A stretch of DNA of 64,000 nt, from contig DHZH01000002.1 in assembly GCA_002414385.1 (NCBI GenBank), positions 406,914 to 470,913 on the forward strand, written 5' to 3'. The stretch's first letter is position 1; every line of letters begins with the position of its first letter. Shown one piece after another: positions 28,796 to 44,739 of the stretch. The notes beneath the pieces are model-generated. The model had not been told where the DNA came from and did no database searches. It saw only the letters and a list, made by a program, of their open reading frames with translations. The translations under genes and the position numbers were made by a program. This DNA is from Gammaproteobacteria bacterium UBA5109. GTDB taxonomy: Bacteria; Pseudomonadota; Gammaproteobacteria; Pseudomonadales; Pseudohongiellaceae.

Positions 28796-30682
28796 ATGTT
28801 TGAAGAAATTCCACAGGAGCGGCCGCAAACACCGCTGCTGGATAGCATTAATGCCCCCGCCGATCTGCGTGAACTTGAAGCAGAACAACTGGAGCAACTG
28901 GCAACAGAGTTGCGGGCCTTTCTGTTGTATTCAGTTGGTAAATCCGGCGGCCATTTTGGAGCCGGCCTTGGCGTGGTGGAACTGACCATCGCCCTGCATT
29001 ATGTTCTGAATACTCCTGATGACAGACTGGTCTGGGATGTCGGACACCAGTCCTACCCGCACAAAATCCTCACAGGTCGCCGTGACCGCATGCATACCAT
29101 CCGGCAAAAAGACGGGCTGGCAGCTTTCAACAACCGTGAAGAAAGTGAATACGATACCTTCGGTGTTGGTCATTCAAGCACATCCATTTCTGCCGCGCTG
29201 GGAATGATGGTAGCCAAACGTAAAAGTGGCAGTGAGCATAAAATTGTTGCTGTCATTGGTGACGGCGCCATGACTGCCGGAATGGCATTTGAGGCCCTGA
29301 ATCATGCCTGTGAACTGGATGACGATATTCTGGTCATTCTTAATGACAACAACATGTCGATATCCAAAAATGTCGGCGGGCTGTCAAGCTACTTTGCCCG
29401 GATGTGGGCCAGCAAACCGTACAATTTTCTGCGTTCCGGGAGCAAGAAAGTGTTATCGAAAGTGCCTCAGGCCTGGAAAGCAGCACATCGTGCCGAGGAA
29501 TACATGAAAGGCATGGTGTCGCCAGCGACAATTTTTGAAGAACTGGGCTTTAATTATTTTGGCCTGATAGACGGACATGACATTGATGGCCTGGTCGATA
29601 TTCTTGAAAATATCAGGAATCTCAAAGGGCCGTTGTTATTGCATGTGGTAACCCAGAAAGGCAAAGGGTATCTGCCCGCTGAGGAAGATCCTTATGGTAT
29701 GCATGCGCTCAACAAGCTGGTGCCTGAGGAAGAAAAGCAGCAGCCGGCAAGTAACATTCCGACCTACTCAAAAATATTTGGTCAGTGGCTTTGTGAGACG
29801 GCTGAACAGGATGCCAGGCTTATGGCGATCACACCGGCAATGGGTGAGGGTTCAGGCATGCGTGAGTTTGAGGAAAAATTTCCAGAACGCTTCTTTGATG
29901 TTGCTATTGCCGAGCAGCATGCGCTGACCTTTGCAGCAGGTATGGCCTGTGACGGGCTCAAACCGGTTGTCGCCATTTATTCAACATTCCTGCAGCGGGC
30001 ATATGATCAGTTGATTCATGATATTGCCCTGCAGGATCTTGATGTGCTGTTTGCCATCGACCGTGCAGGTCTGGTTGGTGCAGACGGACCGACACATGCT
30101 GGCAGTTTTGATTTGAGTTATCTGCGCTGTATTCCCAATCTGGTAGTCATGGCGCCCAGTGATGAAAATGAAATGCGTCATATGCTTTATACCGGTTTTC
30201 AACTTCCCGGTCCTGTGGCTGTGCGTTATCCACGTGGCAGCGCAAGAGGGTTTGAGCTGGATGATGAGCTACACCAGCTGGAGCCAGGTAAAGCGATTAT
30301 TCGTCGGCACGGAAAACAGGTAGCGATTCTGGTTTTTGGTACTTTACTCAAGAATACGATCAAGTGTGCGGAAGAACTGAATGCAACCCTGGTCGATATG
30401 CGTTTTGTCAAGCCGCTGGACGAGGCGCTGATTGCCGAGCTGGCAGCGGAATATGATTTACTGGTAACGGTAGAAGAAAATGTGATCAAGGGCGGTGCAG
30501 GCTCTGCAGTCAATGAATTCCTTGAAGCAAGAGGCCTGAGTGTGCCAATACTGAACCTGGGCTTGCCCGACAAGTTTCTCGGACATGGAAAAGTTGCGGA
30601 GCTACTGGCAGATTGCGGCCTCGACGAAGCAGGAATCAGTCAGTCTGTAAGCAAAAGACTGCAACAGCTCAAGCAAGCCTAA
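28796..30682 (+). CDS. dxs: 1-deoxy-D-xylulose-5-phosphate synthase
   Basis: 628 aa. The TPP motif region [15 protein letters not shown] and DXS-like sequence throughout. Confidence 0.96.
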
Positions 30683-31680
30683 AGCAGTTTCGAGCCAAAC
30701 TGAATTTCACCATCCGGAATTTGCGGAACAGGTTCCTCGACAGGCGCTGATGTAGCAGCGCTGATATTGGTTTCCCAACTGTCTTCCGAGTATTCAGAAA
30801 TAGCCAGGAAAGCCAGCCGACCACTGTTATCTTCCGAGTAGGTGCCGACATAAATATCATACTCACCTGATTCGGGTGACGAGAAATAATATCCTCCGTT
30901 CAGGTTTTCCAGGCTGGAATTGTCATCATTGCAAAACCAGGAACCGCCGGGAGACTGAATGGAAATCGTCGTATCGTAGTCTGCACTGGTATAGATTCCC
31001 AACCCCAGACTACTGGTAGTACTGGGAGAATAATTAAGGCGATAAGTCGGTCCGTCACTAACATAACCGGCACAACCGTTACTTAAGTTATCTGCATCGT
31101 TGGGTCCACCAGCTACCACTTCAAAAACATAAGGATCAGGAAGGAACCCCCCGGACAGGCTGATTTCCGGGGAAGCTGCCTGTAAATCTGTTTCCCAGCT
31201 GCTTTCAGAAAACTCAGTGATTGCCAGAATCGCATTTCTGTTGGTATTGCTTTCTGAATAGGTTCCCACCCAGATGTCATACTGCCCGGATGCCGGGTCA
31301 CTGAAGTAATAGCCTGAATTCAGGTTATTCAGATCGCTGTGGTCATCATTACAATACCAGTCACCGTTAGGGTTATTGATCAGCAGGGTAGTATCGTATT
31401 CGGCATTGACATAAATACCCAGGCCGAGGCTGCCAGGGCTGAAATTCAAACGGTAAGTAGGTTCGTCAGTGATATAGCCATTACAGGAAGAATCAGCATC
31501 ATCGGCATCAAAGCTGCCCCCGGCCAGTACAGAAATGACGTTCGGGTCTGGAGTAAATCCGCCACTAAGTGATCCCGTTCCAAAACGCGGAGTGAGAGAA
31601 AAATCCTGGGCCATTGCCATAGAGCAAACAAAGGTACCAGTTGTAATAAGTAATAATCTGCTTTTATGAAAAGTCATCAC
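30679..31680 (-). CDS. Secreted protein made of two tandem ~140-aa PPC-like modules (island gene 8 of the minus operon)
   Basis: 333 aa with signal peptide [26 protein letters not shown]. Two internal repeats lie at roughly 31186..31608 and 30750..31185. Both share GGF.PDP....V.AGG..DA......C.GY..D.PTYRLN(F/Y)SP...LGLGIY...DYDTT..I..P.G.W.CNDD...L.NLN.GYYF..P.SG.YDI.VGTYSE. The start is 15 nt after the kinase stop. Confidence 0.75.
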
Positions 31681-31695
31681 TGAACCTCTATGGTC

Positions 31696-33702
31696 TTAAC
31701 GGGCAAGTCGAAAACCGGAGCTGGAACTGGCCTGAGTGGCCGGCATCCAGTTGCGGAAAGAAATTCGGCCCTGATGTTCACTGCTGTTCCAGCCACCACC
31801 GCGCAGTATTCGGCTGCAGCCACTTTCTCCGGTCCAGGCAGAACCATCATCCGGGGCACCGTTATAATTGTTACGAGCACAATCCTGTACCCATTCCCAG
31901 GCATTCCCGTGCATGTCAAACAGACCCCAGTCATTGGCAGGATAATTCATGACTTCCGCAGTACCGGCTTCACCACAGTTATTCATTTTTGCCAGGGCAC
32001 ACTGATGGGTATTACCCCAGTGATACTGAGCGGTGCTGCCGGCACGAGCAGCATATTCCCATTCGGCTTCTGTAGGGAGTCGATACCCGGCTCCGGTTTG
32101 ACCGTTAAGCCAGTCAATATAGGTTTGTACCTGATTCCAGTTGGCGTTGGTTACCGGCCGCAATTCCCTGCGCCCTGTACCCTGGTCATTGAGTTGGGCA
32201 CAAATACCAGCCTGCACACAGGAATCCCATTGCGCAAAAGTGACCTCATGTTCCATCAATTCAAAGTTATCGATGAATACTGTATGTACCGGTAGTTCAT
32301 CGCTGTCCCCGGTACCGGAGAGATCGCCCATATCAAAAAAACCGGAGGGGATGGAAATCATCTGGCCAAGATCAGCAATTGCCTGACTCAGTTGTTCCTG
32401 TTGCTGTTGTTGGCGCTGCTGGTTTTGTTGTTGCTGTTCCAGCCGCTCCTGTTCCAGTCTTTCCTGCTCGGCCTGTTCCGCTTCAGCCTGGAGTCTTTCC
32501 TGTTCGAGGCGCTCGGCTTCAGCCTGTTCCGCAACTTCCAGGGCAGCAGCAGCTTCTGCTGCAGCTTCCGCTGCAAGCTCTTCGGCACGCTGGCGCTCAG
32601 CTTCCGCCTGTAAACGCAATTCTTCGTTTTGCTGGTAAACCGTGAATCCGTAATAGCCTCCACCGGCAAGTATTATCAGCAATACTGCGGCAATGGCGTA
32701 CTTCCCGGCAGAGGATTGCTGTCCGGCAGGCTTGCTTACGGTGCTGGCTGCTGCTTTTTCCGGCTTTGCCTGTGGCGGGGGAGCAGATGCAGCAGCCTGT
32801 TCATTACCGTCAAGAAAACCGAGGACATCTTCGACAGACTGGAAGCGGTCTTCCTCATTAAGGCAGAGACATTTATCAATTGCCTTGAGTAAATTTTCTG
32901 AATATTTACCTTTGCCCAGTTCGAGCGCGGAAGTCATCGGGTCCGGCCGGTTACGGGTTACTGCACTCATGCGATTTTCTACCTGGGGCGGGTTCTGACT
33001 GGCGATAATGCGCCACATGACACCGCCAATGGCATAAATGTCAGTCCAGGGGCCGAGATTGCCGTCACTCTCTACCTGCTCAATAGCAGCATAGCCCGGA
33101 CTGTATGGCGCCATGGATTTACTGTGTTCGGTAAAATTCTGCTTGGCTGCACCGAAGTCGATTAATACCGGCTGTTCGTCGCTGCGGCGAATAAAAATAT
33201 TGCCCGGCTTGATATCGCGGTGCAGGACGTGCTGTTTATGTACAACACCGAGGCCTTTAAGCAAGGGAGTAATGATGCGACGCAGTTCATCTTCGGAAAA
33301 GCTCTGCTGGTTCTTTTCCCGGCCGCGAATCAGGTCCGATAGGGGCAGGCCATCTTCAAAGCTCATGACCAGGTAGGCTGTGCCGTTTTCTTCGATAAAG
33401 TCCTGGCAGTTAACAATGTTTGGATGATTTTCAAACTGTACCAGTTGCTTTGCTTCCGCCAGGAAGCGGTCAAGACCAGTCTGAAAATCGACCTGTTCAC
33501 GGGTACCAAGGGGGTGCACGGTACCGGATTCGCGTGTCGCCAGTTCCTGAGGCAGATATTCCTTGATTGCCAGCCAGTTTCCGAGGCGCATATGCTGGGC
33601 TTTATAGACAATGCCGAATCCGCCATAACCGAGCACGCTTTCGATACGGTATTGATTGATAACTGTGCCTTTCGGCAAGGCTAATCGATGTTCGGTATCC
33701 AT
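31696..33702 (-). CDS. Hanks-type Ser/Thr protein kinase, then TM, periplasmic coiled coil and FGE-sulfatase (SUMF1-type) domain
   Basis: 668 aa. Kinase motifs are GYGGFGIVY (aa 25-33), AIKE (K47), HRDIKPGN (aa 161-168), DFG (aa 182-184) and SPGYAAIEQ. The TM is YAIAAVLLIILAGGGYYGFTVY (aa 335-356). An E/Q/A/R-rich coil spans aa 357-445. The C-terminal domain (31699..32364) carries RLPTEAEWEYAARAG, GLFDMHGNAWEWVQD and RILRGGGW...SGFRLAR, typical of the FGE-sulfatase family. Confidence 0.9.
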   Translation of the reverse strand: MDTEHRLALPKGTVINQYRIESVLGYGGFGIVYKAQHMRLGNWLAIKEYLPQELATRESGTVHPLGTREQVDFQTGLDRFLAEAKQLVQFENHPNIVNCQDFIEENGTAYLVMSFEDGLPLSDLIRGREKNQQSFSEDELRRIITPLLKGLGVVHKQHVLHRDIKPGNIFIRRSDEQPVLIDFGAAKQNFTEHSKSMAPYSPGYAAIEQVESDGNLGPWTDIYAIGGVMWRIIASQNPPQVENRMSAVTRNRPDPMTSALELGKGKYSENLLKAIDKCLCLNEEDRFQSVEDVLGFLDGNEQAAASAPPPQAKPEKAAASTVSKPAGQQSSAGKYAIAAVLLIILAGGGYYGFTVYQQNEELRLQAEAERQRAEELAAEAAAEAAAALEVAEQAEAERLEQERLQAEAEQAEQERLEQERLEQQQQNQQRQQQQQEQLSQAIADLGQMISIPSGFFDMGDLSGTGDSDELPVHTVFIDNFELMEHEVTFAQWDSCVQAGICAQLNDQGTGRRELRPVTNANWNQVQTYIDWLNGQTGAGYRLPTEAEWEYAARAGSTAQYHWGNTHQCALAKMNNCGEAGTAEVMNYPANDWGLFDMHGNAWEWVQDCARNNYNGAPDDGSAWTGESGCSRILRGGGWNSSEHQGRISFRNWMPATQASSSSGFRLAR

Positions 33703-33767
33703 GATGCTTTCTGCAACCTGCCTCTTGTTTAACTGATTATATTGTCACATTTTTTAATTGTTACTAT

Positions 33768-34634
33768 TTAGATAGTTACAATGGCCATGATAATGCTCGC
33801 CAGCATGGACTGCCCGCTGGTGCTGTCAATAAATTCACCCTGACCACTTTGTGCCAGACGTCGTAAATATTCCTCAGCCTGATCACTGCCAACCATTACG
33901 GTGGACAGGTAATGTTCCGGGCTTGTGGTGGCGCTGAAATTCTGTGCGGTAGCAAAGGTTGTGTTCAGCAATTCCGGGTAGGCCGGCGCATCTGTCACTA
34001 CAATTATGTAGCGTCGCTGACTTTGCGGCCGCCAGTTCATTACTACGGCCTGATTGAGAGCAGCCGACAGGGCCTCCGGGTTGTCATCATTTGAGCCGCC
34101 ACCGAGACCCATATTGGCTTCCAGCTGATTGATGAAACTTTCAATCTGGGCAAAGTTGGTGGTCGGATATATCTGCTGGAAATTAAGCGGTTGATCCCAG
34201 AGTCGGTCGCCATACCAGACGATACCAATCCCGACTGACGGTGATAGACGGTCCAGCACTGTGGCCAGGTCGGCAATCTGCTGTTTCATCTGATCAATGT
34301 ATTCACCCATGCTGCCGGAAACATCCAGACAGATGACAATGTCCAGTTCGGGAATCCTGATGCGAGCCAGTTCAGAAGAAAGTTCACCGGCTTCCTGCTG
34401 AGACTGGGACAAATCACTTTGTGTCTGGGACAGTTCTTCCTGGGTTTGTTCCAGTTCCTGCTGTGCCTGTTCCAGCGCTTCGGCTACTTCCGCAACCAGT
34501 TCCGGGGAATCACCAGTGTTGGGGAAAAAGGGCAGGGCGGCAATTGTCAGCAACATAAAAGCACCCAGTGCCGAGGCAAACAGATCAAGTGCCGACATGC
34601 TGAAAATATTTATTTCGCGAGAGCGAATTTTCAC
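33768..34634 (-). CDS. vWA-domain protein with an N-terminal MotB/TolR/ExbD-like TM helix and a juxtamembrane coiled coil
   Basis: 288 aa. The N-terminus reads MKIRSREINIFSMSALDLFASALGAFMLLTIAALP, with basic residues and then a TM carrying Asp17. A Q/E-rich coil spans aa 43-90. The vWA MIDAS is DVSGSM (D104-S106-S108; nt 34311..34325), with a later VVTDAP. It overlaps the upstream gene stop by 4 nt. Confidence 0.85.
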   Translation of the reverse strand: MKIRSREINIFSMSALDLFASALGAFMLLTIAALPFFPNTGDSPELVAEVAEALEQAQQELEQTQEELSQTQSDLSQSQQEAGELSSELARIRIPELDIVICLDVSGSMGEYIDQMKQQIADLATVLDRLSPSVGIGIVWYGDRLWDQPLNFQQIYPTTNFAQIESFINQLEANMGLGGGSNDDNPEALSAALNQAVVMNWRPQSQRRYIIVVTDAPAYPELLNTTFATAQNFSATTSPEHYLSTVMVGSDQAEEYLRRLAQSGQGEFIDSTSGQSMLASIIMAIVTI

Positions 34635-36565
34635 TCCTGTTTCTCCAGCAGATTGACCTGATAGGTCACCAGGCCGACTTTAAGTGAATCTCCGGCATTC
34701 AGTTCATACTGCTGGCCGGGACTTAATACTGAGCCATTGATGGCGGTACCGTTGGCACTTTGCAGATCTTCAACATAAATTTTGTGATCCCGAACCATGA
34801 CGCGCAAATGTTTACGCGATACGGTTTCGATATTGAGTACATAGTCAGCATGTTGTGCCGAGCGACCGATAAGCTGACCGTTTTCTGACCGGATCAGCGC
34901 ATTACCGTTAATTTTCAGGCGTGACTCGGCGCCCTGTTCATCTTTGCCGAGTAAGACAATGTCGGGAAATTCAGCGGATGCCTTCTGTAGTTGTTCTTCA
35001 ATTTCCTGGCTCTGCTGCTTCACTTGCTGAATATTTTTTTCTGCTTCGTCCTGGCTTCGGCGACGTTTGCGGACCTGCATGACGACAAAGCCAAACAGGG
35101 CAATAACAACTATGCCAAAACCGCTCCACTGATACATGCGATTGCGCGCATCGACTTCTTGCTGGCGTGCTGCCTCTGCAAGCGCTTCTTCTCGTTCTTG
35201 TGCTTCCTGCTCGAGCTGTTCCTGTCTTTCCTGCAATTCAAGTTGTTCGGCTTCAGCCTGGGCAATGGCTTCCTGGCTGGCTTCAAGCTCCGCTTCCCGG
35301 GCCTGTAGTTCTTCCAGTCTTGCCTGATTTTCTGCCGCCAGTGCTTCCTGTTCGGCCAGTAATTCTTCTGTTGCTTCCTGGAGTCGCAGTCTTTCCTCTT
35401 CGAGAATTTCCTGTTCTTCAAACAAATCAATCAGAATTGCTTCCTGTTCCCTGATCTTGTCTTCTGCCAGTGCCAGAAGCTCGGCTTCTGACAGACAAAC
35501 ATCAAAGGCTTCATAGTAATCAACATTATTACTGGTCAGGAAAGTCCTGATACTGTCCAGGTTGGCACTGAATGCAAAATCCTGGTCTGGTCGCAAACGG
35601 TTGGAGAGCACCGGACTGGAATGCTGGCTGATACCGATCATTTCACCGCAATTATTTAACAGGGCAGCACCGTATTCCCCATCATCAGCCAGCGCGGTAT
35701 GACGAATCTGGCTTATGCCCTGATCAGTTTCAACAATACTCTGCAGGACACCCTGACGGTTTTCCTGCGCCAGGCCCAGAGCAATATTTCTGCCGGTTTC
35801 GGGGAAATCGTAGGATAGATTTATCGGACTGCCTTCAATACCGTTAACGGTTAACAATGCCAGACCGGCAGTTTCATCAGTGGCAGTAATACTGGCAACC
35901 AGAGAGGCACCATTCTGCGGGTTTTCGATAATCCACTGGTCACCCTGGGCGACCAGTGCTTCATTGGTAATAACCATATTATCTGTGACCAGGGTAGCCA
36001 GTCCGGTCTGCACTTCATTACCATTATTCAACACTCTCAGGCTGAAGATGTTGCTGGAAAAATTTGGCGAAAGGTCTATTTGCCAGTTGTCTTCGGGAGA
36101 TTCGGTGATAGCCAGAACCGCATCACCAAAAACATCTTCTTCAAAATAGGCACCTACCCAGATGTTGTATTCGCCGCTTTGCGGGTCATCAAAATAATAA
36201 CCGGCATTGAGATTTGCCAGGTTGTAATTATCATCATTACAGACCCACTCCCCGTCAGGAGTATTGATTAAAATTGTGGTATCCAGTTCCGAGCTTGTAT
36301 AAATTCCCAGCCCCCAGCCCGCGGCCTGGTAATCAAGGCGGTAATCAGGAGCATCAGAGATATAACCGTAGCAACTCGAATCTGCGTTGCCGGCATCAAG
36401 CTCGCCCCCAATGGCGACTTCAACAAGCTGTGGATCAGGCAGAAAACCGGCACTTAAATCGGTGCTGCCATAGTTAGGATCCATCCTGACATCCTGTGCA
36501 ACAGCCAGGCTACTTAAAACAGTGCCGCTTATCACAGTTAACACTATCAGTGGTCTAGTTTTCAT
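34631..36565 (-). CDS. Membrane-anchored protein: signal peptide, PPC-like module, degenerate trypsin-like domain, coiled coil, TM, cytoplasmic FHA
   Basis: I prefer the start MKTRPLIVLTVISGTVLSSLAVA-QD at 36565, which overlaps PP2C by 11 nt; the ORF-track start at 36682 would overlap it by 128 nt. The PPC-like module is ~36071..36496. The trypsin-2-like region has VITNEALV, ETAGLALLTV and GEYGAALLN. The E/Q/A coil is ~35140..35485 and the TM is WSGFGIVVIALFGFVVMQV. The FHA reads LIGRSAQHADYVLNIETVSRKHLRVMVRDHKIYVEDLQSANGTAINGSVL. Confidence 0.8.
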   Translation of the reverse strand: MKTRPLIVLTVISGTVLSSLAVAQDVRMDPNYGSTDLSAGFLPDPQLVEVAIGGELDAGNADSSCYGYISDAPDYRLDYQAAGWGLGIYTSSELDTTILINTPDGEWVCNDDNYNLANLNAGYYFDDPQSGEYNIWVGAYFEEDVFGDAVLAITESPEDNWQIDLSPNFSSNIFSLRVLNNGNEVQTGLATLVTDNMVITNEALVAQGDQWIIENPQNGASLVASITATDETAGLALLTVNGIEGSPINLSYDFPETGRNIALGLAQENRQGVLQSIVETDQGISQIRHTALADDGEYGAALLNNCGEMIGISQHSSPVLSNRLRPDQDFAFSANLDSIRTFLTSNNVDYYEAFDVCLSEAELLALAEDKIREQEAILIDLFEEQEILEEERLRLQEATEELLAEQEALAAENQARLEELQAREAELEASQEAIAQAEAEQLELQERQEQLEQEAQEREEALAEAARQQEVDARNRMYQWSGFGIVVIALFGFVVMQVRKRRRSQDEAEKNIQQVKQQSQEIEEQLQKASAEFPDIVLLGKDEQGAESRLKINGNALIRSENGQLIGRSAQHADYVLNIETVSRKHLRVMVRDHKIYVEDLQSANGTAINGSVLSPGQQYELNAGDSLKVGLVTYQVNLLEKQE

Positions 36566-37469
36566 CGCCCATGCTCTCATTATCTGCGTTTTCATCATTA
36601 TGCTCATCGGCATTATCTGAATCTGTCGGAGTTTCGTTATTGTTTTTGCCACGCAGGGTCTGTACATGAGCCTGGTCACCAAGAATGCGAATAATATTCA
36701 GGGTCGAGTTGTCCTGGGAAGGGCGCTGGTGCTCAGTGACTTTCTGTAAAATGATTTCGACCAGTTTTTCAGCATCACTCAAGGAATTCCCCTGTTCGGC
36801 AGCAAGCAGGCTCTGTAATTCTTCAACTGAGCAGGTTTCCACTCCATCACTGGCCAGGATAAATATATCACCTGCCTCTACACTGAATGTTTCATCAGGC
36901 AAATCAACCAGCTTGATGTCCCGGCCCAGGACTGCTTCCAGCAACTGGCTTCTTTCCGGCGAAGTTGCGGCTTCTTCAGCACTGATAAGACCTTGTTCCA
37001 CCTGTTTGGACAGTTCTTCGGCCATGGAGTGATTTTCATTAAGCCGGCTTAGCTTACCCTGACGATATAACCACAAGGGGCTGTCTCCGACGCTGATCCA
37101 TTGCACGGCATTGCCGTCAAAGATGAGAGCCAGAAAGGTAGAGCCCATGCCCTCCATTTCCGGGTTTTGTTTGACGTATTCGTAAACGGCCAGGTTTGCT
37201 GCACTCAGACCTTCCAGAAAACGGTCTTTGATTTCTTCTTTCTCTGAGGCAACAAAGCTTTCACGGAAAGTACTTACTACCAGCTGACTGGCTTCGGCAC
37301 CACCGACATGCCCGCCCATGCCATCGGCGAGAATATGCAGTGAAAAACCATTGGGCCAGCTGACGATAGCTGCCCGGTCCTGCTGGGATTTACGGCTGCC
37401 AATTATCTGACCCCAGGCTGAATCGGTGGTCAGGTTCGCAAGCTCTTTGGCACCCTCAGCAGCCATCAT
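36555..37469 (-). CDS. PP2C-family Ser/Thr phosphatase (soluble) with an acidic C-terminal tail
   Basis: 304 aa. Motifs are SRKSQQDRAAI, ILADGMGGHVGGAEAS, ILASDGV and QDNSTLNIIRI. The tail is rich in D/E/N. Confidence 0.9.
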   Translation of the reverse strand: MMAAEGAKELANLTTDSAWGQIIGSRKSQQDRAAIVSWPNGFSLHILADGMGGHVGGAEASQLVVSTFRESFVASEKEEIKDRFLEGLSAANLAVYEYVKQNPEMEGMGSTFLALIFDGNAVQWISVGDSPLWLYRQGKLSRLNENHSMAEELSKQVEQGLISAEEAATSPERSQLLEAVLGRDIKLVDLPDETFSVEAGDIFILASDGVETCSVEELQSLLAAEQGNSLSDAEKLVEIILQKVTEHQRPSQDNSTLNIIRILGDQAHVQTLRGKNNNETPTDSDNADEHNDENADNESMGDEN

Positions 37470-37477
37470 GCACCTGC

Positions 37478-38197
37478 TTATTCTTCATCCCAAGTGAAGT
37501 TTTCACCGCATAGCGGAACAAATAAAAGTGTGGTTTCACCCAGTGTGATACGGCTACCAGGGCTTAACTGGGCAGGAGCAAGCACCGGGCTGTTATTCAG
37601 GTAGGCCAGATTGGTACCGGAACCCTGCTGAATATAAAAGCTCAGGCCGCGCGGATCAAAAGTCAGAATGGCATGATTGGCACGGGAAATCTGCTCATCC
37701 CCGAAATCCAGTTTGACGCGTTCGGTTGGGCCACGGCCTATACTGTTCTGGCCGTTACCCAGCTTGAGATAATTGCCTTTTCCGGGACCGTCGATAACAA
37801 CCAGCCAGCCAACCACCGGATCGGCCATGGCATCAACCGGGCCGGACTGGGGTTCTTCCTGGGTATGGGGCTGCCGGGCTTTGCTGTGGCCTCCGGCTAT
37901 TACAGTAGCAGGCTCATCGCTTGCAGGAGCAGTTGATGATGCTGCCTGGGTTTCTTTCGAGCTGCCAGAGCTGTCTCCGGCTTTAACGGTAGGTGGCTCA
38001 TCAGCAAAAAGGCTGCCACCGGGAGACTGCTGATTGACTTCAGTTGGCGCATCGTCGTTATTGCCAGGACTTGATGTATTATCAAACAGGGAAGTCGGTG
38101 CTTCACTTCCTGCATTGCCTGACGACTGCTTGGATTTTTCATGCATGACGGACGGGACATCTACCGGTACACCGTCTGGGCCTCGTTTAACTGCCAT
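37478..38197 (-). CDS. FHA-domain protein with a long Ser/Thr/Pro-rich disordered N-terminal half
   Basis: 239 aa. The C-terminal FHA reads GWLVVIDGPGKGNYLKLGNGQNSIGRGPTERVKLDFGDEQISRANHAILTF...GTNLAYLNNSPV. The N-terminal ~130 aa are low complexity and S/T/P/A/G/D-rich. Confidence 0.85.
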   Translation of the reverse strand: MAVKRGPDGVPVDVPSVMHEKSKQSSGNAGSEAPTSLFDNTSSPGNNDDAPTEVNQQSPGGSLFADEPPTVKAGDSSGSSKETQAASSTAPASDEPATVIAGGHSKARQPHTQEEPQSGPVDAMADPVVGWLVVIDGPGKGNYLKLGNGQNSIGRGPTERVKLDFGDEQISRANHAILTFDPRGLSFYIQQGSGTNLAYLNNSPVLAPAQLSPGSRITLGETTLLFVPLCGENFTWDEE

Positions 38198-38223
38198 AAT
38201 GATCCTCCGGGAAAAATTTCAGT

Positions 38224-39039
38224 TTATTTTTCTTCATAAAGTCGGTTGATTAAATTATCCATACAATACTGGCCGGTGTTGTTGAGTGCGGATTCTTCCC
38301 GTCCCTGCGCCAGGTGCATAAAAAACACCAGAATTGCAGACATAACCAGCGCCAGCAGGGTCGTATTGAACGCCACACCAAGTTTGGTGGTAAGCACGCC
38401 CATCCAGACGCGAATTGCATCACTTTGTCCCAGGTCTGGCATATCGGATGCTTCCGACAATGACAGGGCGATACCGATAACTGTTCCGATAAAGCCGATA
38501 GTCGGAATCAGCCAGACCAGGTAACGAACCATGTTGTATTTCAGGTCGATCTCATGCTGCATCAACTCCAGACTGGAATTCATCAGGTTGTTGGACTGGT
38601 CTATGGACTGGCTGTTCTGGAACTGCAGAATAATACGGTGAATCAGCCGTGGCAGGAAAAAATAACGGGTATGCTTGTTATCAACCACTGAGCTGAAAAT
38701 CGGAACCAGCTCTTTGGCACGCAGCATTGTCGTATCATCTTCCGGCAACAGGCCGCGTTTGAGCTGGGCAATTTCTTTCTTGCCGCGGTCAAAACGGACC
38801 CAGAGTTCACCAAAGCCGATCATGAACAGCAGCCACATGATATTCTGGATGGTCAAGGGATAGGGGAAGACGTCTGTGGAGCGGTCGAAAAGAATATCTG
38901 CGAGTACCAGCTCTCCGACAACATCTTCAGACGGTGAGCTTATCAGTGACATGATGGCAATGAAAACCGCACCGATCATGATAGCAACCAGGGCAACAAT
39001 TACACGGTAGGTTGTTTCCTGTTGTTCAAGATTATTCAT
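38224..39039 (-). CDS. MotA/TolQ/ExbB-family proton-channel protein with no cognate MotB/ExbD/TolR gene adjacent
   Basis: 271 aa. It has two N-terminal TMs, a ~90-aa cytoplasmic loop, then the family signature LIPTIGFIGTVIGIALSL ... LGVAFNTTLLALVMSAILVFF. Confidence 0.85.
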   Translation of the reverse strand: MNNLEQQETTYRVIVALVAIMIGAVFIAIMSLISSPSEDVVGELVLADILFDRSTDVFPYPLTIQNIMWLLFMIGFGELWVRFDRGKKEIAQLKRGLLPEDDTTMLRAKELVPIFSSVVDNKHTRYFFLPRLIHRIILQFQNSQSIDQSNNLMNSSLELMQHEIDLKYNMVRYLVWLIPTIGFIGTVIGIALSLSEASDMPDLGQSDAIRVWMGVLTTKLGVAFNTTLLALVMSAILVFFMHLAQGREESALNNTGQYCMDNLINRLYEEK

Positions 39040-39100
39040 AGCTTAATTCCGCTTTCTCAGGCAACGAAAGGCTTTCCCTGGCTGCCGGACAAGTTATGGA

Positions 39101-39379
39101 TCAGTGCTTAATCGAATGCACCAGCTGCCGGACCTGAACTTCTTCTTTGCCGAGCAGCAGGATGTCACTTTCATTAACAAAGCCCTGTTTCATTAATTCC
39201 CAGGATTCGCCTTTCCTTATGCGGGTACCAGCTGTGGAATTAGCATCTATCAGGTAGTATTTGCCATCATCAGTACGTGTCAGCTCCAGATGTTTGCGGG
39301 AAACACTCTGGCCATTGATCTGGATATCAGCATCTGAAGCTCTACCGACTGAAAAAGTTCTGAATGACATGCATACCAC
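39101..39379 (-). CDS. Stand-alone FHA-domain protein, first gene of the minus operon
   Basis: 92 aa, with an alternative ATG at 39370 giving MSFRTF. The FHA motif reads FSVGRASDADIQINGQSVSRKHLELTRTDDGKYYLIDANSTAGTRI. Confidence 0.85.
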   Translation of the reverse strand: MVCMSFRTFSVGRASDADIQINGQSVSRKHLELTRTDDGKYYLIDANSTAGTRIRKGESWELMKQGFVNESDILLLGKEEVQVRQLVHSIKH

Positions 39380-39505: not shown

Positions 39506-41242
39506 TTGATTGGCCAGAAGAAGCAGCTAATGGCAGTTCTTGATAAGTGTTCTATCACTTGTTTTAGCCATATTGGGAACCGCGAAGAAAATCAGGATCG
39601 ATTTTGCGTTTTGCAGCATCCGCAAGGTAAGGCCATATTGTGCCTGGTTGCCGATGGTATGGGTGGTCACCGTGGCGGCGCACTGGCAGCACAGACTATT
39701 GTCGAGACCGCTGAAGCCCAGTGGCAGGAACACATTTCAGCAGACAGCCTTGATAATGATGCAGTCGAAGCATTCCTCAATCAGCTGATTACTGAAAGCC
39801 ACCAGGCAGTAAAAATGGCTGGTTTGGCTGAGGAAATTGAGCCCCGTTCCACAGTCGTTGCCCTTTACCTCTTTCATGACAAAGGCAGCATGCATGCCAT
39901 CTCCATTCATGCCGGAGACAGCCGTGCCGTGCAGTATTCTTCTTCTGGAAAAATAACCAGAACCATTGATCACTCCATGGCGCAGCTGAAAGTACTGCAA
40001 GGCAAAATAAGTGAAGAAGAAATGGCAACTGACCCTGATCAGGGCACTGTAATTTCAAATATTGGTGGTGAAGACGAGCCTGAGTCGGAAATTACTCACT
40101 GGAACCTGCAGCAGGGCAATTGTTTTACCATCTGCAGTGATGGCTTCTGGGAAATCTTTACTGATGAAGAAGTACTGGAATTATTTTCTCAGTTGCCGGA
40201 AGACAGAGAGATACAGCTGGAAAAAATATTTATCGAAAAAATCAAACAACTTCCCAAGCATGACAACACAACGGTTATAATGCTTGAAATTCCCGATAGC
40301 AAACCCGATAACAAAAAGGGTCCTTCCATGAGTGATACTGATAAACCTGATTCATCCACGCCGGATGTAGAAGATCCGGTAACCAATCCCGGCAAGACGG
40401 CGCCTGCCCCTGAGTCAGCCCCGCTTGGACAGGATGATGTTGCTGTCGGTACGGGCAACAATAACAAGAAACTGATTATCGGTATTGGCGTGGTAATCAT
40501 AGTCATTGCCCTGTTATTTGTGACACGTGGCGGCCAGGAGTCGGACGGGGAAAATGCTGGAGAAAATAGCGATGCGGGACAGGTAGCACAGGAGCAGGTG
40601 CCGGCTCCTGCACAGGAAGGGACAGAAGGGGCTGGTGAAGGAGAAGCAAATACTGAAGGAGGGGATGCTCCTGCACAGCCGGATGAAGTTGTGGCTGGTA
40701 ACGATGAGGGTGCAGCCGGCCAGGACAGGGTGCTTGACTCCCTGGAACTGGATACCGACATTTCGGTCAGCAGTGATGAAGAATTGGTCGCAGAAGTAAC
40801 CGATTTACTGGTGCTTACCGGCAGCCTTGGTCCGGATGATGCGTTGACGATCAGCAGTGAAGCCGAAGCCGGAGGCAACCGGATAATCCGTATGCAGCAA
40901 AGACATCAGGGCATCCCGGTGTTCGGCGGTGAGGTAATCGCTGTGGAAAACAATGGCAATGTCTTTAATGTCAGCGGCTCTACAGGTGCTGATATTGAAA
41001 TAGATGTCGAACCGGCCCTTACTTACGAACAGGCTCTGGAGATAGCCGGGGCGGCGCTGAACCAGGCACTTGGTTCCAGAAATGAAGACGCAGCACAACT
41101 GCTGATACTTGAAGTTGAAGATAATTATCATTTGGCCTGGTATAGCGTTCTGCTGATTGATGGCAGGGAAGAAAGGGTGTTTCTGGATGCCAATGATGGA
41201 TCGGTACTGTTACGACTGCCTACAGTGATAGGAGAGGCCTGA
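39506..41242 (+). CDS. PP2C Ser/Thr phosphatase, then TM, acidic linker and extracytoplasmic FTP/PepSY (M4-propeptide-like) domain
   Basis: 578 aa with a TTG start at 39506 and an alternative ATG at 39530. PP2C motifs are GNREENQDRFCV, LVADGMGGHRGGALAA, ICSDGFWE and HDNTTVIML. The TM is LIIGIGVVIIVIALLFV (aa 323-339, nt 40472..40522), followed by a D/E/G/A-rich linker. The FTP-like region reads RIIRMQQRHQGIPVFGGEVIAV. The PepSY-like region reads LTYEQALEIAGAAL...YHLAWYSVLLIDGREERVFLDANDGSVL (about 40838..41215). Confidence 0.85.
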   Translation: MIGQKKQLMAVLDKCSITCFSHIGNREENQDRFCVLQHPQGKAILCLVADGMGGHRGGALAAQTIVETAEAQWQEHISADSLDNDAVEAFLNQLITESHQAVKMAGLAEEIEPRSTVVALYLFHDKGSMHAISIHAGDSRAVQYSSSGKITRTIDHSMAQLKVLQGKISEEEMATDPDQGTVISNIGGEDEPESEITHWNLQQGNCFTICSDGFWEIFTDEEVLELFSQLPEDREIQLEKIFIEKIKQLPKHDNTTVIMLEIPDSKPDNKKGPSMSDTDKPDSSTPDVEDPVTNPGKTAPAPESAPLGQDDVAVGTGNNNKKLIIGIGVVIIVIALLFVTRGGQESDGENAGENSDAGQVAQEQVPAPAQEGTEGAGEGEANTEGGDAPAQPDEVVAGNDEGAAGQDRVLDSLELDTDISVSSDEELVAEVTDLLVLTGSLGPDDALTISSEAEAGGNRIIRMQQRHQGIPVFGGEVIAVENNGNVFNVSGSTGADIEIDVEPALTYEQALEIAGAALNQALGSRNEDAAQLLILEVEDNYHLAWYSVLLIDGREERVFLDANDGSVLLRLPTVIGEA

Positions 41243-43503
41243 TGAAAAAAACTTTACTAAGCCTTCTGCTATTTGCCGGTACTTTCTCAATTGGCGGCAA
41301 TGTCTACCCACAGGATAGTGAAGTTTTTTTTGATGGATTTGGCGAGAATACCCGGACTTTTTCCAGTGATGAAGAAATTATTCAGTGGCTCAGCACTGAC
41401 CTGCATGCCGAGTTGAACCTTGGTCCCGCCGACGAGTTAATGCTCAGTGAACAGAGTGCGAGCATTAACAATTTCAGCATTCATACCGTCCAGCAAAACC
41501 ATCAGGGCTATCCTGTCGTAGGGTTTCAGTCGCGCCTGATTCTGGATGCCCAGGGGAATCAGCTTGCCTTGCTCGGCCAGCATCAGGCTTTTCCGGAAGA
41601 CACACCCAGTGAGGCCAGTGTAAGTATAGAAGATGCAATTACAGCATCAGGCTTGAGTGATACATCTTTCAGTTCTGATACACCGGTATATATGGTTGTT
41701 GATGATGAATTAAGACTGAGCTGGCAGCTGGAAGGTAATTCCGATGGTGCCTCTGGCGCCACACAGGAAAGAATTTTTGTTGATGCACTCAATGGTGAAG
41801 TGATCGCCAGCTATCCGATGGTTTATACCGCCTTGATTCGCGAAGTCGGTGATATGGAAGCTGCCTGCAGGGCAGCAGGTATCACATTTCCCCTGGATCC
41901 GCAGTCAGCATTTGAAATTGAGCTGATGGTTGAGGAAGAACAGTACCATCGAAGTGAAGGTGAAGCATCCAGCGGGGCGGGCCATGTAGATGAACTTTAC
42001 GATACTCTTGGGGATGCCTATGAGTTTATGAGCAGTGTGCTGGGCATGGACAGTCTTGATGACAATGGGCTGCGACTAAAAGCCATTGCCGGAGTTCATT
42101 ATTTTCAGGGTGACCCATGGAATCAGTGTGTCGGTGACTCATTTAATGCCATGTGGAGTTCGCAGTGGAACGAGCTGTACATTCCTGAAGTTGCCATTCC
42201 CTTTATTGAAGTCGTTGCACATGAACTGGCCCACGGCATTGTTTCCAATGGCAGTGACCTGGTTTATGAGTTTGAATCTGGAGCCATGGATGAAGCCATA
42301 TCTGATGCCATCGGTGTGTCCTTCAGGGCCTGGCGTGATGCCGGTGGCCGTATGGGGTCAAGTCCGACCAATATCCCGACCTATCCTGCACTCTGGGAGT
42401 TACGCTCTGATACCGGCCCGCTGCGCAGCATGAGCAACCCGAAAAGCGTCAACAGCGGCTTGCCTGGAGGTTACCCGGATCACTACAACCAGTTTTTTGA
42501 TTTATCCATTGAGGAAGATCAGGGTGGGGTGCATATCAATTCATCCATCATTAATCAGGCTTTTTATATTCTGGTTGAGGGTGGTCAGCACCCGCGCCTG
42601 GGTACTGGCCCGAACGTGCAGGGAATTGGGATCGCCAATGCCAGCCAGATTTTCGCACTGGCCGGATCCCAGTTGCTAACTCCTTTTGCTGATTTTCAGG
42701 CAGGCCGCAACGCCTTTGCCCTGGCTGCAGAAATTCTGCACGGTAAACATTCCGAGATCTGGATTGCAGTTCATGAAGCCATGGATGCAGTAGGAATTCC
42801 GGGAAGCTGGCAACGACAGCCCCCCACACCACCACCGGTAATTCTGCCGACTCCGGTTCCGCAACCTGATCCGGCACCACCGTCGGCCCCTGATCCGGCT
42901 CCTGCTCCTGATACTCAGGCTCCGGATCCCGGCCCGGTTTCAACACCGGCACCGGGAAACCCACCACTGCCCAGTGAACCGCTTGTGCTAGAGAATAACA
43001 ATGCCCTGTATATAGGCCTGGGTATCGGATTCCTGGTCATTGCTTTCTTTGTCCTGAGCCGTTTACGTCCCCAATACAGTGCAAACGCGCCGGAATACCG
43101 GCGGGCATCAGCAGAACCGGCGCGACCGACACCTGCAACAGCTCCTGAACCACGGCTCAATCAGCAACAGATTGCAGTCAGCAGGGGAGCCAGTCTTGGC
43201 AAACTGGTCGGTTCCGGCACCAGTGCATCCATAGCGCTTGATGACTCATTACTGGCTTCACGTGAAGGACTGGTGATTGGTCGTTCGGCAAAACTGAACC
43301 ATGTTATTCTGGATGATTCCAGGGTTTCCCGACGGCACGCCCGCTTGCGCAAGGAAGGCCACCTGATTGTGCTTGAAGATCTGAATTCGACTCATGGCAC
43401 TGCAGTTAATGGCAAGAAGCTGCAGCCGTTTTCACAGGAAGTCATCCGGCAGGGTGACAGTGTGGAAATAGCTGGCATTAGATTTACCTGTGATCTGAGC
43501 TAA
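41242..43503 (+). CDS. Membrane-anchored M4 (thermolysin-family) metalloprotease with its own FTP/PepSY propeptide, Pro-rich linker, TM and cytoplasmic FHA
   Basis: 753 aa. The ATG overlaps the upstream stop (TGATG), and a signal peptide is present. The propeptide shows FSIHTVQQNHQGYPVVGF and LRLSWQL...IFVDALNGEVI. The zinc site is VVAHELAHGIV (HELAH at nt 42220..42234) plus ESGAMDEAISDAIG. GGVHINSSIINQAFYIL is close to thermolysin as I recall it. Then come the PPTPPPVILPTPVPQPDPAPP linker and the TM ALYIGLGIGFLVIAFFVLS (~43003..43062). The FHA reads LVIGRSAKLNHVILDDSRVSRRHARLRKEGHLIVLEDLNSTHGTAVNGKKL (~43265..43490). Confidence 0.9.
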   Translation: MKKTLLSLLLFAGTFSIGGNVYPQDSEVFFDGFGENTRTFSSDEEIIQWLSTDLHAELNLGPADELMLSEQSASINNFSIHTVQQNHQGYPVVGFQSRLILDAQGNQLALLGQHQAFPEDTPSEASVSIEDAITASGLSDTSFSSDTPVYMVVDDELRLSWQLEGNSDGASGATQERIFVDALNGEVIASYPMVYTALIREVGDMEAACRAAGITFPLDPQSAFEIELMVEEEQYHRSEGEASSGAGHVDELYDTLGDAYEFMSSVLGMDSLDDNGLRLKAIAGVHYFQGDPWNQCVGDSFNAMWSSQWNELYIPEVAIPFIEVVAHELAHGIVSNGSDLVYEFESGAMDEAISDAIGVSFRAWRDAGGRMGSSPTNIPTYPALWELRSDTGPLRSMSNPKSVNSGLPGGYPDHYNQFFDLSIEEDQGGVHINSSIINQAFYILVEGGQHPRLGTGPNVQGIGIANASQIFALAGSQLLTPFADFQAGRNAFALAAEILHGKHSEIWIAVHEAMDAVGIPGSWQRQPPTPPPVILPTPVPQPDPAPPSAPDPAPAPDTQAPDPGPVSTPAPGNPPLPSEPLVLENNNALYIGLGIGFLVIAFFVLSRLRPQYSANAPEYRRASAEPARPTPATAPEPRLNQQQIAVSRGASLGKLVGSGTSASIALDDSLLASREGLVIGRSAKLNHVILDDSRVSRRHARLRKEGHLIVLEDLNSTHGTAVNGKKLQPFSQEVIRQGDSVEIAGIRFTCDLS

Positions 43504-43566: not shown

Positions 43567-44739
43567 ATGAGTGATACAAAGACTGCACGTAAATATCAGC
43601 ATTTTTCAATTTTCCTGCTGCTGGCACTTGCTGTCCTGGTTTTTTATATTGCCTTCATGCAAAGCACCGGTTCCGGTCTGGACTTTGGTGATGATAGTGG
43701 GGCACTTGCCATAAACGGTTCCTGTGAAGATATCCGTTTCCGTGGTCCGGGAATGGGAGATATGTCAGATGAGACTGGCAGCCTGAATGACGCCACTGAC
43801 TGCAGTACTTTATTTACCGAAGGGTCCATTTTTCTGGGCAGTGATGCCGCAGCCCTGGCATTGACTGCCATTAATTTTGGTGATGATGCGGGAACCTGGC
43901 CGGTTGATGGTGAGTGTGATGATCCACGCTTTGAAGGGGCCGGTGTTTCATTCAGTGCCGATAGCGACGAGATCATGCATGATGCAACTGACTGTCGCAA
44001 TTTGATGTTTCAGGGGCAGATTGCCTTCACCGGTGAACCGGAAGAATATATTCGTGACGGTATCGACTTTGGTGATAATTTCGGTACCTACGCTAATGAC
44101 AATGAATGCGATGATACCCGCTTCACCGGACCGGGGATGGCCGATGAAAGCACCTTCGAAGTCAGCAATATTCGCCATGATGCTGCAGACTGTTTAGCGC
44201 TTTATGATGAAGGCATGGTGGTATTGCAGGAAATGCAGATTATTGACGGTATAAATTTCGGAGATGACCAGGGGTCCTGGGCTAATGATGCTGAATGTGA
44301 TGATCCACGTTTTACTGGTGGAGGCACAGCGGAAACCCTGCTACAAGAAGATGCGATGCATGATGCAAGTGATTGTCGCAGTCTTTATCTGGCAGGGGGG
44401 ATAAGCTATATCGGCAACCCGGAAAACAGAATAATCGAAACCGGGGCGCTGGAAGTTACAGATGATCAAATAGAATCTGACAAGTACGTGGACGCCTATT
44501 CGTTTACAGGCACCCAGAATCAGCGGGTGGCTTTTGATCTGGTGTCCGATGAGTTTGATACTTATCTGATTGTCACTTCTCCGTCCGGAGAAGTTTTCGA
44601 GAATGACGATTTCGAGAGTGATACATCGCGTTCACTGATTTCAATGAGCCTGCCGGAAAGCGGCACCTATGCAATTCAGGTGACCAGCTACTCAAGCGAG
44701 TCATTCGGCACCTATACCCTGGAGATTAATGCTGAATAG
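43567..44739 (+). CDS. N-terminally anchored protein with four Cys/Asp-rich ~55-aa repeats and a C-terminal PPC-like domain
   Basis: 390 aa with the TM FSIFLLLALAVLVFYIAFM. Four repeats fit (L/I)(D/N)FGDD.G.W..D.ECDD.RF.G.G...(H/N)DA.DC..L (about 43678..44427). The C-terminal module (44428..44736) reads DAYSFTGTQNQRVAFDL...DTYLIVTSPSGEVFENDD...GTYAIQVTSY...GTYTLEI. Confidence 0.75.
   Translation: MSDTKTARKYQHFSIFLLLALAVLVFYIAFMQSTGSGLDFGDDSGALAINGSCEDIRFRGPGMGDMSDETGSLNDATDCSTLFTEGSIFLGSDAAALALTAINFGDDAGTWPVDGECDDPRFEGAGVSFSADSDEIMHDATDCRNLMFQGQIAFTGEPEEYIRDGIDFGDNFGTYANDNECDDTRFTGPGMADESTFEVSNIRHDAADCLALYDEGMVVLQEMQIIDGINFGDDQGSWANDAECDDPRFTGGGTAETLLQEDAMHDASDCRSLYLAGGISYIGNPENRIIETGALEVTDDQIESDKYVDAYSFTGTQNQRVAFDLVSDEFDTYLIVTSPSGEVFENDDFESDTSRSLISMSLPESGTYAIQVTSYSSESFGTYTLEINAE

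Follow-up and report, generated by a model that had tools for sequence, protein, structure and literature searches.

Ion-driven complexes of the MotAB, ExbBD and TolQR type are, to our knowledge, the only means by which Gram-negative bacteria supply the periplasm and the outer membrane with energy, and each new output module of such a motor is a new use of the energy delivered. The present analysis concerns an eight-gene operon on the minus strand of a 64,000-nucleotide stretch of DNA (the window; positions 406,914 to 470,913 of contig DHZH01000002.1, assembly GCA_002414385.1) from Gammaproteobacteria bacterium UBA5109. The operon carries an apparently orphan gene of the MotA/ExbB/TolQ family (the MotA-like gene) and, further downstream, a gene for a protein consisting of a transmembrane (TM) helix, a coiled coil and a vWA domain (the vWA protein). 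An earlier note on this DNA had proposed that the two proteins are the A and B subunits of a stator-like motor and that a motor tipped with a vWA domain had not been described.

The pairing had in fact already been predicted. A study published in 2025 (msaf138; Mol Biol Evol 2025;42(6), PMC12204202), based on AlphaFold3 and carried out in silico only, described 'TPH-vWA' proteins paired with orphan TolQ homologues. In its 5:2 models the TM-tethered vWA helices lie inside the pentamer, with the Asp pair within the Thr ring. The TPH-vWA genes were predominantly organised as heterologous pairs, with Idiomarina loihiensis as the reference (Fig. 4c,d of that study), and were found mainly in Proteobacteria and Verrucomicrobia; outer-membrane force transduction was proposed as their role. 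Another vWA family, the first one of that study, comprised peripheral transducers with an SHLS/His motif, encoded beside tolQR-like genes. Neither FHA domains, PP2C or kinases (the word 'kinase' occurs 0 times) nor heads other than vWA are mentioned in its text (PMC12204202).

The window family has several features in common with the TPH-vWA proteins of msaf138. The vWA protein is TM-tethered and tightly linked to a tolQ/motA-family gene, with no tolR, exbD or motB; the Asp of its TM helix is conserved and the SHLS/His motif is absent. Heterologous vWA pairs were also found in relatives of the window operon (Alteromonas lipotrueae, locus L056, as well as L104, L147, L152 and L166). The window differs in having a single vWA gene, with no heterologous pair, and three genes between it and the channel gene. 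Since such pairs are described in msaf138 as predominant, they are not a required feature. Moreover, the family extends beyond the published range, into Acidobacteriota, Rhodothermales, Gemmatimonadota and Binatia. The central idea thus dates from 2025, and the angles that appear new here are a phospho-signalling module, exchangeable heads and the wider phyletic range. A full-text literature search found no other paper joining such a motor with an FHA/PP2C/kinase context.

In comparison with the Ton motor ExbB-ExbD and the Tol motor TolQ-TolR, the window system has the same A-subunit Pfam family, fold and Thr motif of the TolQ T145 type, and its candidate partner has a short basic cytoplasmic N-terminus, E-I-N, and a single TM helix with an Asp near the cytoplasmic end. 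It differs in that the A subunit is very divergent and is predicted to cross the membrane four times, N-terminus inside, instead of three, the partner is devoid of the ExbD/TolR periplasmic domain and of profile similarity in its TM helix, and neither TonB nor TolA is encoded in the cluster. The four-TM A subunit, the B-type helix with one Asp and the periplasmic part of B serving, as proposed here, as an anchor are shared with MotA-MotB and PomA-PomB, whereas the OmpA-like peptidoglycan-binding domain, the flagellar genes and the large torque-generating cytoplasmic insert are absent from the window system.

The channel protein and the linked Asp helix

The best explanation of the data presented below is that the MotA-like protein, as the A part, and the vWA protein, as the B part, belong to a single MotAB/ExbBD/TolQR-type ion-driven complex, to which a probability of about two in three was assigned. 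This interpretation is unproven and well supported by comparative genomics. Since the helix has no detectable homology to the TolR/ExbD helices, its reading as a B subunit is founded on conservation, gene linkage and the lack of a canonical partner.

The gene at 38224..39039 encodes an A subunit of the MotA/ExbB/TolQ family, as shown by profile, fold and Thr motif. Both the sequence and Pfam agree with the earlier description of its motifs and of the FHA genes on its two flanks. Four TM helices with the N-terminus inside, as in MotA, are predicted from the charge distribution. The AlphaFold2 (AF2) model of the protein was confident (pLDDT 86, pTM 0.80), and the best-ranked PDB matches listed by Foldseek were chains of ExbB, TolQ, MotA, PomA and ZorA complexes (ZorA 8vvn_D being one of them), with Acinetobacter baumannii TolQ 8vlw_B at the top (TMt 0.70); the TM-scores were moderate and the E-values modest (6e-3 and weaker). 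The invariant segment P179-T-I-G-F-I-G-T186-V was aligned by hhalign to the part of E. coli TolQ (the sequence used is identical to 8odt_A) that contains the pore threonine T145, which placed the invariant T186 (codon 38484..38482) opposite this residue. The position of TolQ T145 and ExbB T148 is that of the conserved pore-lining Thr of A subunits. Two further invariant threonines, T226 and T227, lie in the last TM helix, and their equivalence to TolQ T178 was drawn by motif comparison only.

The family alignment of the MotA-like protein, with 55-92% identity, gave a profile with which no solved A subunit was matched in a PDB sequence search, and the hidden Markov model of the subfamily scored 2.4 bits on E. 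coli TolQ, as compared with 287-477 bits on the matches in the loci. The protein represents a divergent branch of A subunits. A PDB search with the single sequence returned weak matches to MotA chains only (E 0.25-0.43).

The vWA protein begins with MKIRSREINIFSMSALDLFASALGAFMLLTIAALP and has, as had been stated, a basic N-terminus, an EIN motif, a TM helix with D17 (GAT codon, 34586..34584) and a vWA domain with a DxSxS motif. The gene starts with a GTG overlapping the stop codon of the preceding FHA gene (encoding protein X) as GTGA (34631-34637), which suggests translational coupling of the two proteins. An in-frame ATG at M13, chosen in some database gene calls (e.g., P0096), would drop the conserved basic N-terminus. 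In the AF2 model, residues 14-36 formed a helix (of low confidence in isolation), residues 44-91 a second, long helix and residues 97-286 a vWA fold that was predicted well, and a Foldseek search with this model matched vWA domains with E 1e-9. The TM helix has the basic residues K2, R4 and R6 on its N-terminal side and acidic residues on the other; hence, according to the positive-inside rule, the stalk and the vWA head are predicted to be periplasmic. The topology and the AF2 model are consistent with the suggestion of the earlier note that the output part is a coiled coil with a vWA domain and not an OmpA/TonB-interacting domain.

A total of 1198 homologues of the vWA protein was found, and in the family alignment the N-terminal 40 residues were the best-conserved part of the protein. 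Among 73 distinct sequences from the genome loci, drawn from at least six phyla (Gammaproteobacteria, Acidobacteriota, Rhodothermales, Gemmatimonadota and Binatia, with one alphaproteobacterium), the residues F11, L16, D17, L18, F19, S21, G24, A25 and F26 were invariant in 73/73. The Asp was the sole charged residue in the TM core of the helix. No conserved His was present in these 73 sequences (His occurred in seven of them, outside the TM core), and the SHLS motif was absent. A profile of the 46-residue trans-pore-helix (TPH) module recovered 1110 representative proteins (463 with E<=1e-10) among 1.84 billion, and almost all of the listed matches were N-terminal. The motif P35-F-F-P-N-T-G-D-S is conserved at the periplasmic exit of the helix, where it may serve as a plug or touch the channel's first periplasmic loop, which is conserved as well. 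A cleavable signal peptide was considered and rejected for this segment, as the hydrophobic stretch, ~25 residues in length, includes an Asp and does not vary between phyla. One database protein of 380 residues (P0441) runs on from a MotA-like C-terminus into a TPH-vWA protein without a break; rather than a true fusion, this is probably an artefact of a frameshift or of the gene call where two genes abut.

The linkage of the two genes was evaluated in both directions. A scan of genomes with the vWA-family alignment gave 419 relatives, of which 79 loci were kept, and a gene of the MotA-like subfamily was located within 10 kb of the TPH gene in 65 of these 79. Among the 14 other loci, four were contigs ending before the expected position. 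The reverse scan of metagenomes with the MotA-like alignment yielded 80 loci; 17 of them had at least 6 kb on both sides, and 16 of these 17 contained a TPH gene. The co-occurrence anticipated by the earlier note was thus borne out. The usual gene order was [FHA]-MotA-FHA-PP2C-X-vWA. The channel and TPH genes directly abut in Azotimanducaceae and in L057, and in Longimicrobiales they are convergent neighbours, with FHA, PP2C and X undetected in most such loci (a kinase is present in L070).

The orphan status of the channel gene was confirmed. No homologue of ExbD, TolR or MotB was detected in the window with phmmer (E. coli ExbD, TolR and MotB as queries) or with the TolR/ExbD profile with filters off. 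No canonical B subunit was found within ±10 kb of the 79 genome loci, and no ExbD or OmpA family in the Pfam-annotated neighbourhoods of L080-L082, L085 and L087. In the whole set of ~160 loci, ExbD genes near a relative occurred only in complete exbB-exbD-tonB clusters ~9 kb off, with an ExbB of their own. The data support that no canonical B subunit serves the channel.

Several observations weigh against the A-B pairing. The earlier note had expected a profile match between the N-terminus of the vWA protein and the TM helices of B subunits, and none of significance was obtained. The Pfam scan of the N-terminal 50 residues and of 43 N-termini of the family gave nothing relevant at E<=10, and the PDB search with the N-terminal profile found no B subunit, the matches being chance ones only, to insect Orco channels (E ~0.6). 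In hhalign against a TolR/ExbD profile (114 sequences, enterobacterial only and of low diversity, Neff ~1.5), only the four columns 'EINI' were aligned, with a probability of ~1%. The score of the forced global alignment was 1.8, in comparison with a mean of 3.9 ± 2.3 for column-shuffled profiles, and 85 of 100 shuffles reached the observed score. The layout, said to be the same as in TolR and ExbD, agrees in the basic N-terminus, the EIN motif and the TM Asp and departs in the spacing, since the Asp lies 8 residues from EIN in the vWA protein and 6 in TolR/ExbD, so that both can be aligned only with a shift of two residues. The TolR and ExbD sequences quoted in the earlier note were themselves correct, as their 100% and 99% matches are named TolR and ExbD. 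The descent of the TPH from a TolR/ExbD/MotB helix is therefore not demonstrable at the level of sequence. Furthermore, 10 of the 79 TPH loci had no MotA-like gene within 10 kb, and in L144 a channel gene occurred with no TPH detected. The stalk of the homologues varies in length from none to more than 150 residues, which speaks against a fixed span to the outer membrane. The cytoplasmic domain of the MotA-like protein contains conserved Ser and no invariant Thr and is not an obvious phospho-Thr target for FHA. Finally, the agreement of the window family with the TPH-vWA proteins of msaf138 is one of description.

The lack of detectable homology was not taken as refuting the function, because a single TM helix of ~25 residues holds too little signal and the diversity of the reference profile was low. 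For several of the ten TPH loci, a MotA-like gene was located elsewhere in the same genome or contig (L006 and L044 with L010; L069 with L049; L046 with L008; inferred for L018 and L032). The canonical ExbD of L152, which starts with ESEINITPMLDVVF, shares E-I-N with the TPH, and its Asp is 6 and not 8 residues past the Asn.

Exchangeable heads and the phospho-signalling module

At least 19 of the best 144 representatives found with the TPH profile did not contain a vWA domain. They carried instead a C-terminal domain of ~120 residues, named Head2, with the consensus ..ISW..DDVDLHVVDP.GNEYYY...FEED..GPGNE.W....PG.Y.VYY....V.VRG......LP......ATIVVD..GNV. No Pfam family matched Head2, apart from a weak PPC match in a single member, P0497. 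P0452 carries, besides Head2, a Peptidase_M15_3 domain. The operon of L085/L086 encodes Trypsin-FHA, TPH-Head2, FHA, MotA_ExbB, FHA, PP2C and kinase proteins and has no vWA gene, and in L087 the order is FHA, MotA_ExbB, FHA, PP2C, PP2C and TPH-Head2. The MotA-like genes of L085/L086 and L087 belong to the same subfamily as that of the window. Because a TPH-Head2 gene stands in place of the vWA gene in operons that are identical in all else, it is the Asp helix and not the vWA domain that constantly accompanies the channel. Linkage that follows the helix and not the head is as expected if the helix is the part touching the channel.

In L029, a TPH-Head2 gene is located directly upstream of a TPH-vWA gene. 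Pairs formed by divergent TPH-vWA genes were found in the five loci named above for heterologous pairs and in L105, and in the L152 pair the MIDAS motif is intact in one gene and degenerate in the other. If the reading of the helix as a B subunit is true, two different heads encoded side by side would allow heterodimers.

The FHA/PP2C/kinase module is conserved across phyla and appears new relative to msaf138. Genes for FHA, PP2C and kinase proteins were present in 51, 47 and 51 of the 79 genome loci, respectively, and in most of the 80 metagenome loci. An FHA gene in the position of 39101..39379 was also found in L080, L081, L085, L087 and L152, and the FHA gene directly after the MotA-like gene was kept in most loci. 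The kinases flanking the system, several of them with FGE domains, occur additionally in L081, L083 and L152. The proposal of the earlier note that the motor is under Ser/Thr-phosphorylation control has its support in conserved gene context only. As phospho-Thr targets, the Ser/Thr-rich FHA protein or protein X are more likely than the channel.

Protein X, encoded between the PP2C and vWA genes, is composed of a signal/anchor, a periplasmic repeat domain, a trypsin-like pseudoprotease, a coiled coil, a TM helix and a cytoplasmic FHA domain, in this order. Its open reading frame extends to 36682; translation probably begins with the ATG at 36565, ahead of the signal-like sequence. Comparison of residues ~190-320 with DegS revealed the replacement of the catalytic His by Ala (ITNEALV), Asp by Gly and Ser by Tyr (GEYGAAL), and the trypsin-like domain, which is of the DegS/HtrA type, was classified as a pseudoprotease because all three catalytic residues are replaced. 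In the Alteromonas orthologue, the Ser motif reads GEFGAPL. A gene for a protein of ~480-510 residues with a C-terminal FHA domain takes the position of protein X in L056 and L080-L082, and lies upstream of the TPH gene in L085. Whether the stalk of the vWA protein varies in length together with that of protein X, as a sign of head-to-head contact, was also looked at; only 12 loci were usable, one value was clearly wrong, and no signal was obtained.

A similar set of part kinds is known from the Agl-Glt machinery of Myxococcus (AglRQS, GltG, CglB), namely a TolQ-like motor, a bitopic FHA protein and a vWA protein, and the FHA domain of GltG, next to a TM helix, is predicted to bind the pentamer of TolQ-like AglR (PMC11761067). 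The two systems differ in that AglQ and AglS are canonical TolR-type proteins, CglB is an outer-membrane lipoprotein and not a pore helix, and Agl-Glt has no PP2C/kinase module. The sequence relation is confined to the FHA domain (NCBIfam GltG matches with E 2e-5, far under the cut-off).

Proposed mechanism and alternative readings

According to the proposed mechanism, five MotA-like subunits would surround two TPH helices of the vWA protein, with D17 facing T186 and T226/T227 of the A subunits. D17 would bind and release protons or another ion, and the ion flow would turn one part of the complex against the other. The coiled-coil stalk and the predicted metal-binding vWA head in the periplasm would serve as the anchor or as the output, the head binding an acidic ligand. 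As the conserved gene order suggests, the two FHA proteins, the PP2C, the kinase(s) and the bitopic protein X may form a threonine-phosphorylation switch, which would either gate the assembly or activity of the motor or receive its output. A target proximal to the inner membrane or in the peptidoglycan, or a role as a sensor, is at least as likely as force transduction to the outer membrane, because the stalk length varies and one head carries a cell-wall peptidase.

Such a device, in which the A-B pairing is real and the complex is a sensor or effector and not an outer-membrane force transducer, was weighed as an alternative in its own right and judged unlikely. In the sensor version, the head would anchor to or sense a periplasmic ligand and the motor would report to the FHA/PP2C/kinase network, following a Zorya-like logic; in the effector version, phosphorylation would open the channel, as in a stress or defence module of the TerY-P type. 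The variable stalk, the M15 peptidase of peptidoglycan type on one alternative head and the FHA genes on both sides of the A-subunit gene all favour this reading, as do the integrase/transposase genes beside L085, L080 and L082. The co-located vWA, PP2C and Ser/Thr kinase genes of the window recall the TerY-P triad, which consists of a TerY-like vWA protein, a PP2C and a Ser/Thr kinase and has been proposed to be a metal- and phosphorylation-dependent switch (Anantharaman et al. 2012, as summarised in PMC11090510). TerY, however, is not TM-anchored, whereas the vWA protein of the window has a TM anchor with the Asp helix and a periplasmic location, and its gene accompanies those of a MotA-like channel and three FHA proteins; the window kinase also has an FGE-sulfatase domain and not a zinc ribbon or OB fold. 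With Zorya, the system would share a non-flagellar 5:2 motor in which B senses or anchors in the envelope and A reports to the cytoplasm, and PADLOC did give a weak ZorA match on the channel core (E 3.8e-6). On the other hand, the A subunit (271 residues) has no long tail of the ZorA type, there is no ZorB peptidoglycan-binding domain, and no ZorC/D or ZorE-type protein was found by PADLOC among the eight operon proteins. A reading as anti-phage defence was rejected, since PADLOC gave no system-level match, the match of the vWA protein was coiled-coil noise only and the PP2C and kinase matches were generic. The cluster is also situated amid housekeeping genes (ispA-dxs and 2-oxoacid:ferredoxin oxidoreductase-like genes), in DNA of ordinary GC content.

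Another explanation is that the helix is a mere signal-anchor or an oligomerisation helix pairing with the TM segment of protein X or the kinase, the MotA-like protein then working alone, as a regulated channel, or with an unlinked ExbD/TolR. The homology searches described above, the TPH genes distant from any MotA-like gene and the annotation of two homologues as 'TatA' by JGI, i.e., as a generic small TM protein, would agree with it. It was nevertheless regarded as quite improbable, as signal-anchors are not invariant across six phyla, whereas a buried Asp is kept here in 73/73 sequences, and as the linkage tracks the helix even when the head changes. The adjacent genes of Longimicrobiales, most of them with no FHA, PP2C or X detected, and the confinement of ExbD/TolR near the ~160 loci to complete Ton clusters also speak against it.

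The general layout, in which a TM helix is followed by a long periplasmic linker and a globular head, is shared with the first vWA family of msaf138 (PMC12204202), but a TolA/TonB-like peripheral force transducer on the exterior of the pentamer is very improbable here, as the SHLS/His motif is absent, the Asp is the only polar or charged conserved residue of the core, and the TolR/ExbD dimer that such a transducer needs in the pore is not encoded.

The A-B pairing may be one case of a widespread class of 5:2 machines in which the Asp helix stands in for the canonical B subunit and is a universal adaptor for swappable heads (vWA, Head2, Head2 with M15), while a threonine-phosphorylation switch forms a fixed part of the cytoplasmic side; this generalisation is tentative and was considered somewhat less probable than its opposite. 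If true, a motor with a swappable metal-dependent adhesion head and FHA/PP2C/kinase genes would widen the known repertoire, and it would provide the first case of a 5:2 motor with a coupling to Ser/Thr phospho-signalling, with signalling acting as a brake or clutch or the motor acting as a mechanosensor feeding the kinase network. The arrangement would join two separate fields, that of ion-driven rotary motors and that of bacterial Ser/Thr phospho-signalling. For annotation, it would mean that an 'orphan' MotA/TolQ/ExbB gene need not be an orphan and that a motor subunit is concealed under the label 'vWA domain-containing protein'. Cultured strains are among those that have the family (Alteromonas, Halioxenophilus sp. 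WMMB6, Pseudomonas sp. WN033 and Corallincola platygyrae), which makes the prediction directly testable.

The operon and its surroundings

The eight genes of the operon span 39379..30679, with intergenic gaps of -11 to 65 nt, in the order FHA, MotA/ExbB/TolQ-family, FHA, PP2C, pseudoprotease-TM-FHA (X), TM-coiled-coil-vWA, Ser/Thr kinase and repeat protein. The features of the operon, the divergent genes beside it and the features cited from other loci are collected in Table 1.

Table 1. Coordinates of the features discussed (window positions, unless a locus is named).
Feature	Position	Strand	Basis or remark
Small cytoplasmic FHA protein, 92 residues; operon gene 1, directly upstream of the MotA-like gene	39101..39379	-	PF00498 E 8.1e-14
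MotA/ExbB/TolQ-family A subunit, 271 residues	38224..39039	-	PF01618 E 3e-11, 43.6 bits vs cut-off 22.9
FHA protein, 239 residues; Ser/Thr/Pro-rich N-terminal half, probably disordered	37478..38197	-	PF00498 E 7.4e-9, residues 152-220
PP2C-type Ser/Thr phosphatase, 304 residues	36555..37469	-	PP2C_2 E 8.6e-13; NCBIfam Stp1_PP2C E 9e-41 (under its cut-off)
Bitopic protein X, ~644 residues	34631..36565	-	FHA E 8e-15; Trypsin_2 E 3.5e-6
TPH-coiled-coil-vWA protein, 288 residues; fourth gene downstream of the MotA-like gene	33768..34634	-	VWA_2 E 4.9e-12
TPH module of the vWA protein, residues 1-36: basic N-terminus, E7-I-N9, F11, TM helix with D17	34527..34634	-	most conserved segment of the family
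Periplasmic long helix/coiled-coil stalk (predicted), residues 44-91	34362..34505	-	AF2 helix 44-91
vWA domain, residues 97-286; DxSxS = DVSGS (D104, S106, S108) and conserved D215	33777..34346	-	VWA_2, AF2, Foldseek
Ser/Thr protein kinase, 668 residues; TM segment and C-terminal FGE-sulfatase-type domain	31696..33702	-	Pkinase E 1.2e-37; FGE-sulfatase E 6.3e-48
Secreted-type repeat protein, 333 residues; last operon gene	30679..31680	-	phmmer cross-matches to the N-terminal domain of protein X (L001, L003, L004)
PP2C-TM-FTP/PepSY protein, 578 residues; divergent, probable accessory part	39506..41242	+	PP2C_2 E 1.5e-15; FTP E 8e-9
Thermolysin-type (M4) peptidase-TM-FHA, 753 residues; HELAH intact, probable accessory part	41242..43503	+	Peptidase_M4_C E 3.9e-32; FHA E 9.1e-17
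Protein of 390 residues downstream of the M4-FHA gene; four DD.ECDD.RF.G.G-type repeats and C-terminal PPC domain	43567..44739	+	PPC E 4.3e-6
TPH-Head2 examples	L085 10001-10879; L087 4491-5330; L029 9087-9881; L053 19961-20902		P0392, P0395, P0454, P0497 and others
Complete exbB-exbD-tonB cluster ~9 kb upstream of the orphan MotA-like gene	L152 23-1687		also in L147, L166

The last operon gene encodes a protein with two tandem repeats (..C.GY....P.YRL.., ..W.CNDD..), and the same repeats make up the periplasmic domain at the N-terminus of protein X. The protein encoded by the last gene matched no Pfam family, and its membership in the system is uncertain.

Each protein of the divergent pair at 39506-43503 connects a periplasmic domain, of protease or propeptide type, with a phospho-signalling domain in the cytoplasm. 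L001, L003, L008, L037 and L056 also have a divergent PP2C gene at this place, and Peptidase_M4_C-FHA proteins recur in L080 and, as a fused PP2C-Peptidase_M4_C-FHA protein of more than 1137 residues, in L081.

Phage-type integrase/transposase genes adjoin the system in several relatives (L085 6846-8060; L080 1820-3175 and 11841-12839; L082 15161-16764), which hints at mobility of the system.

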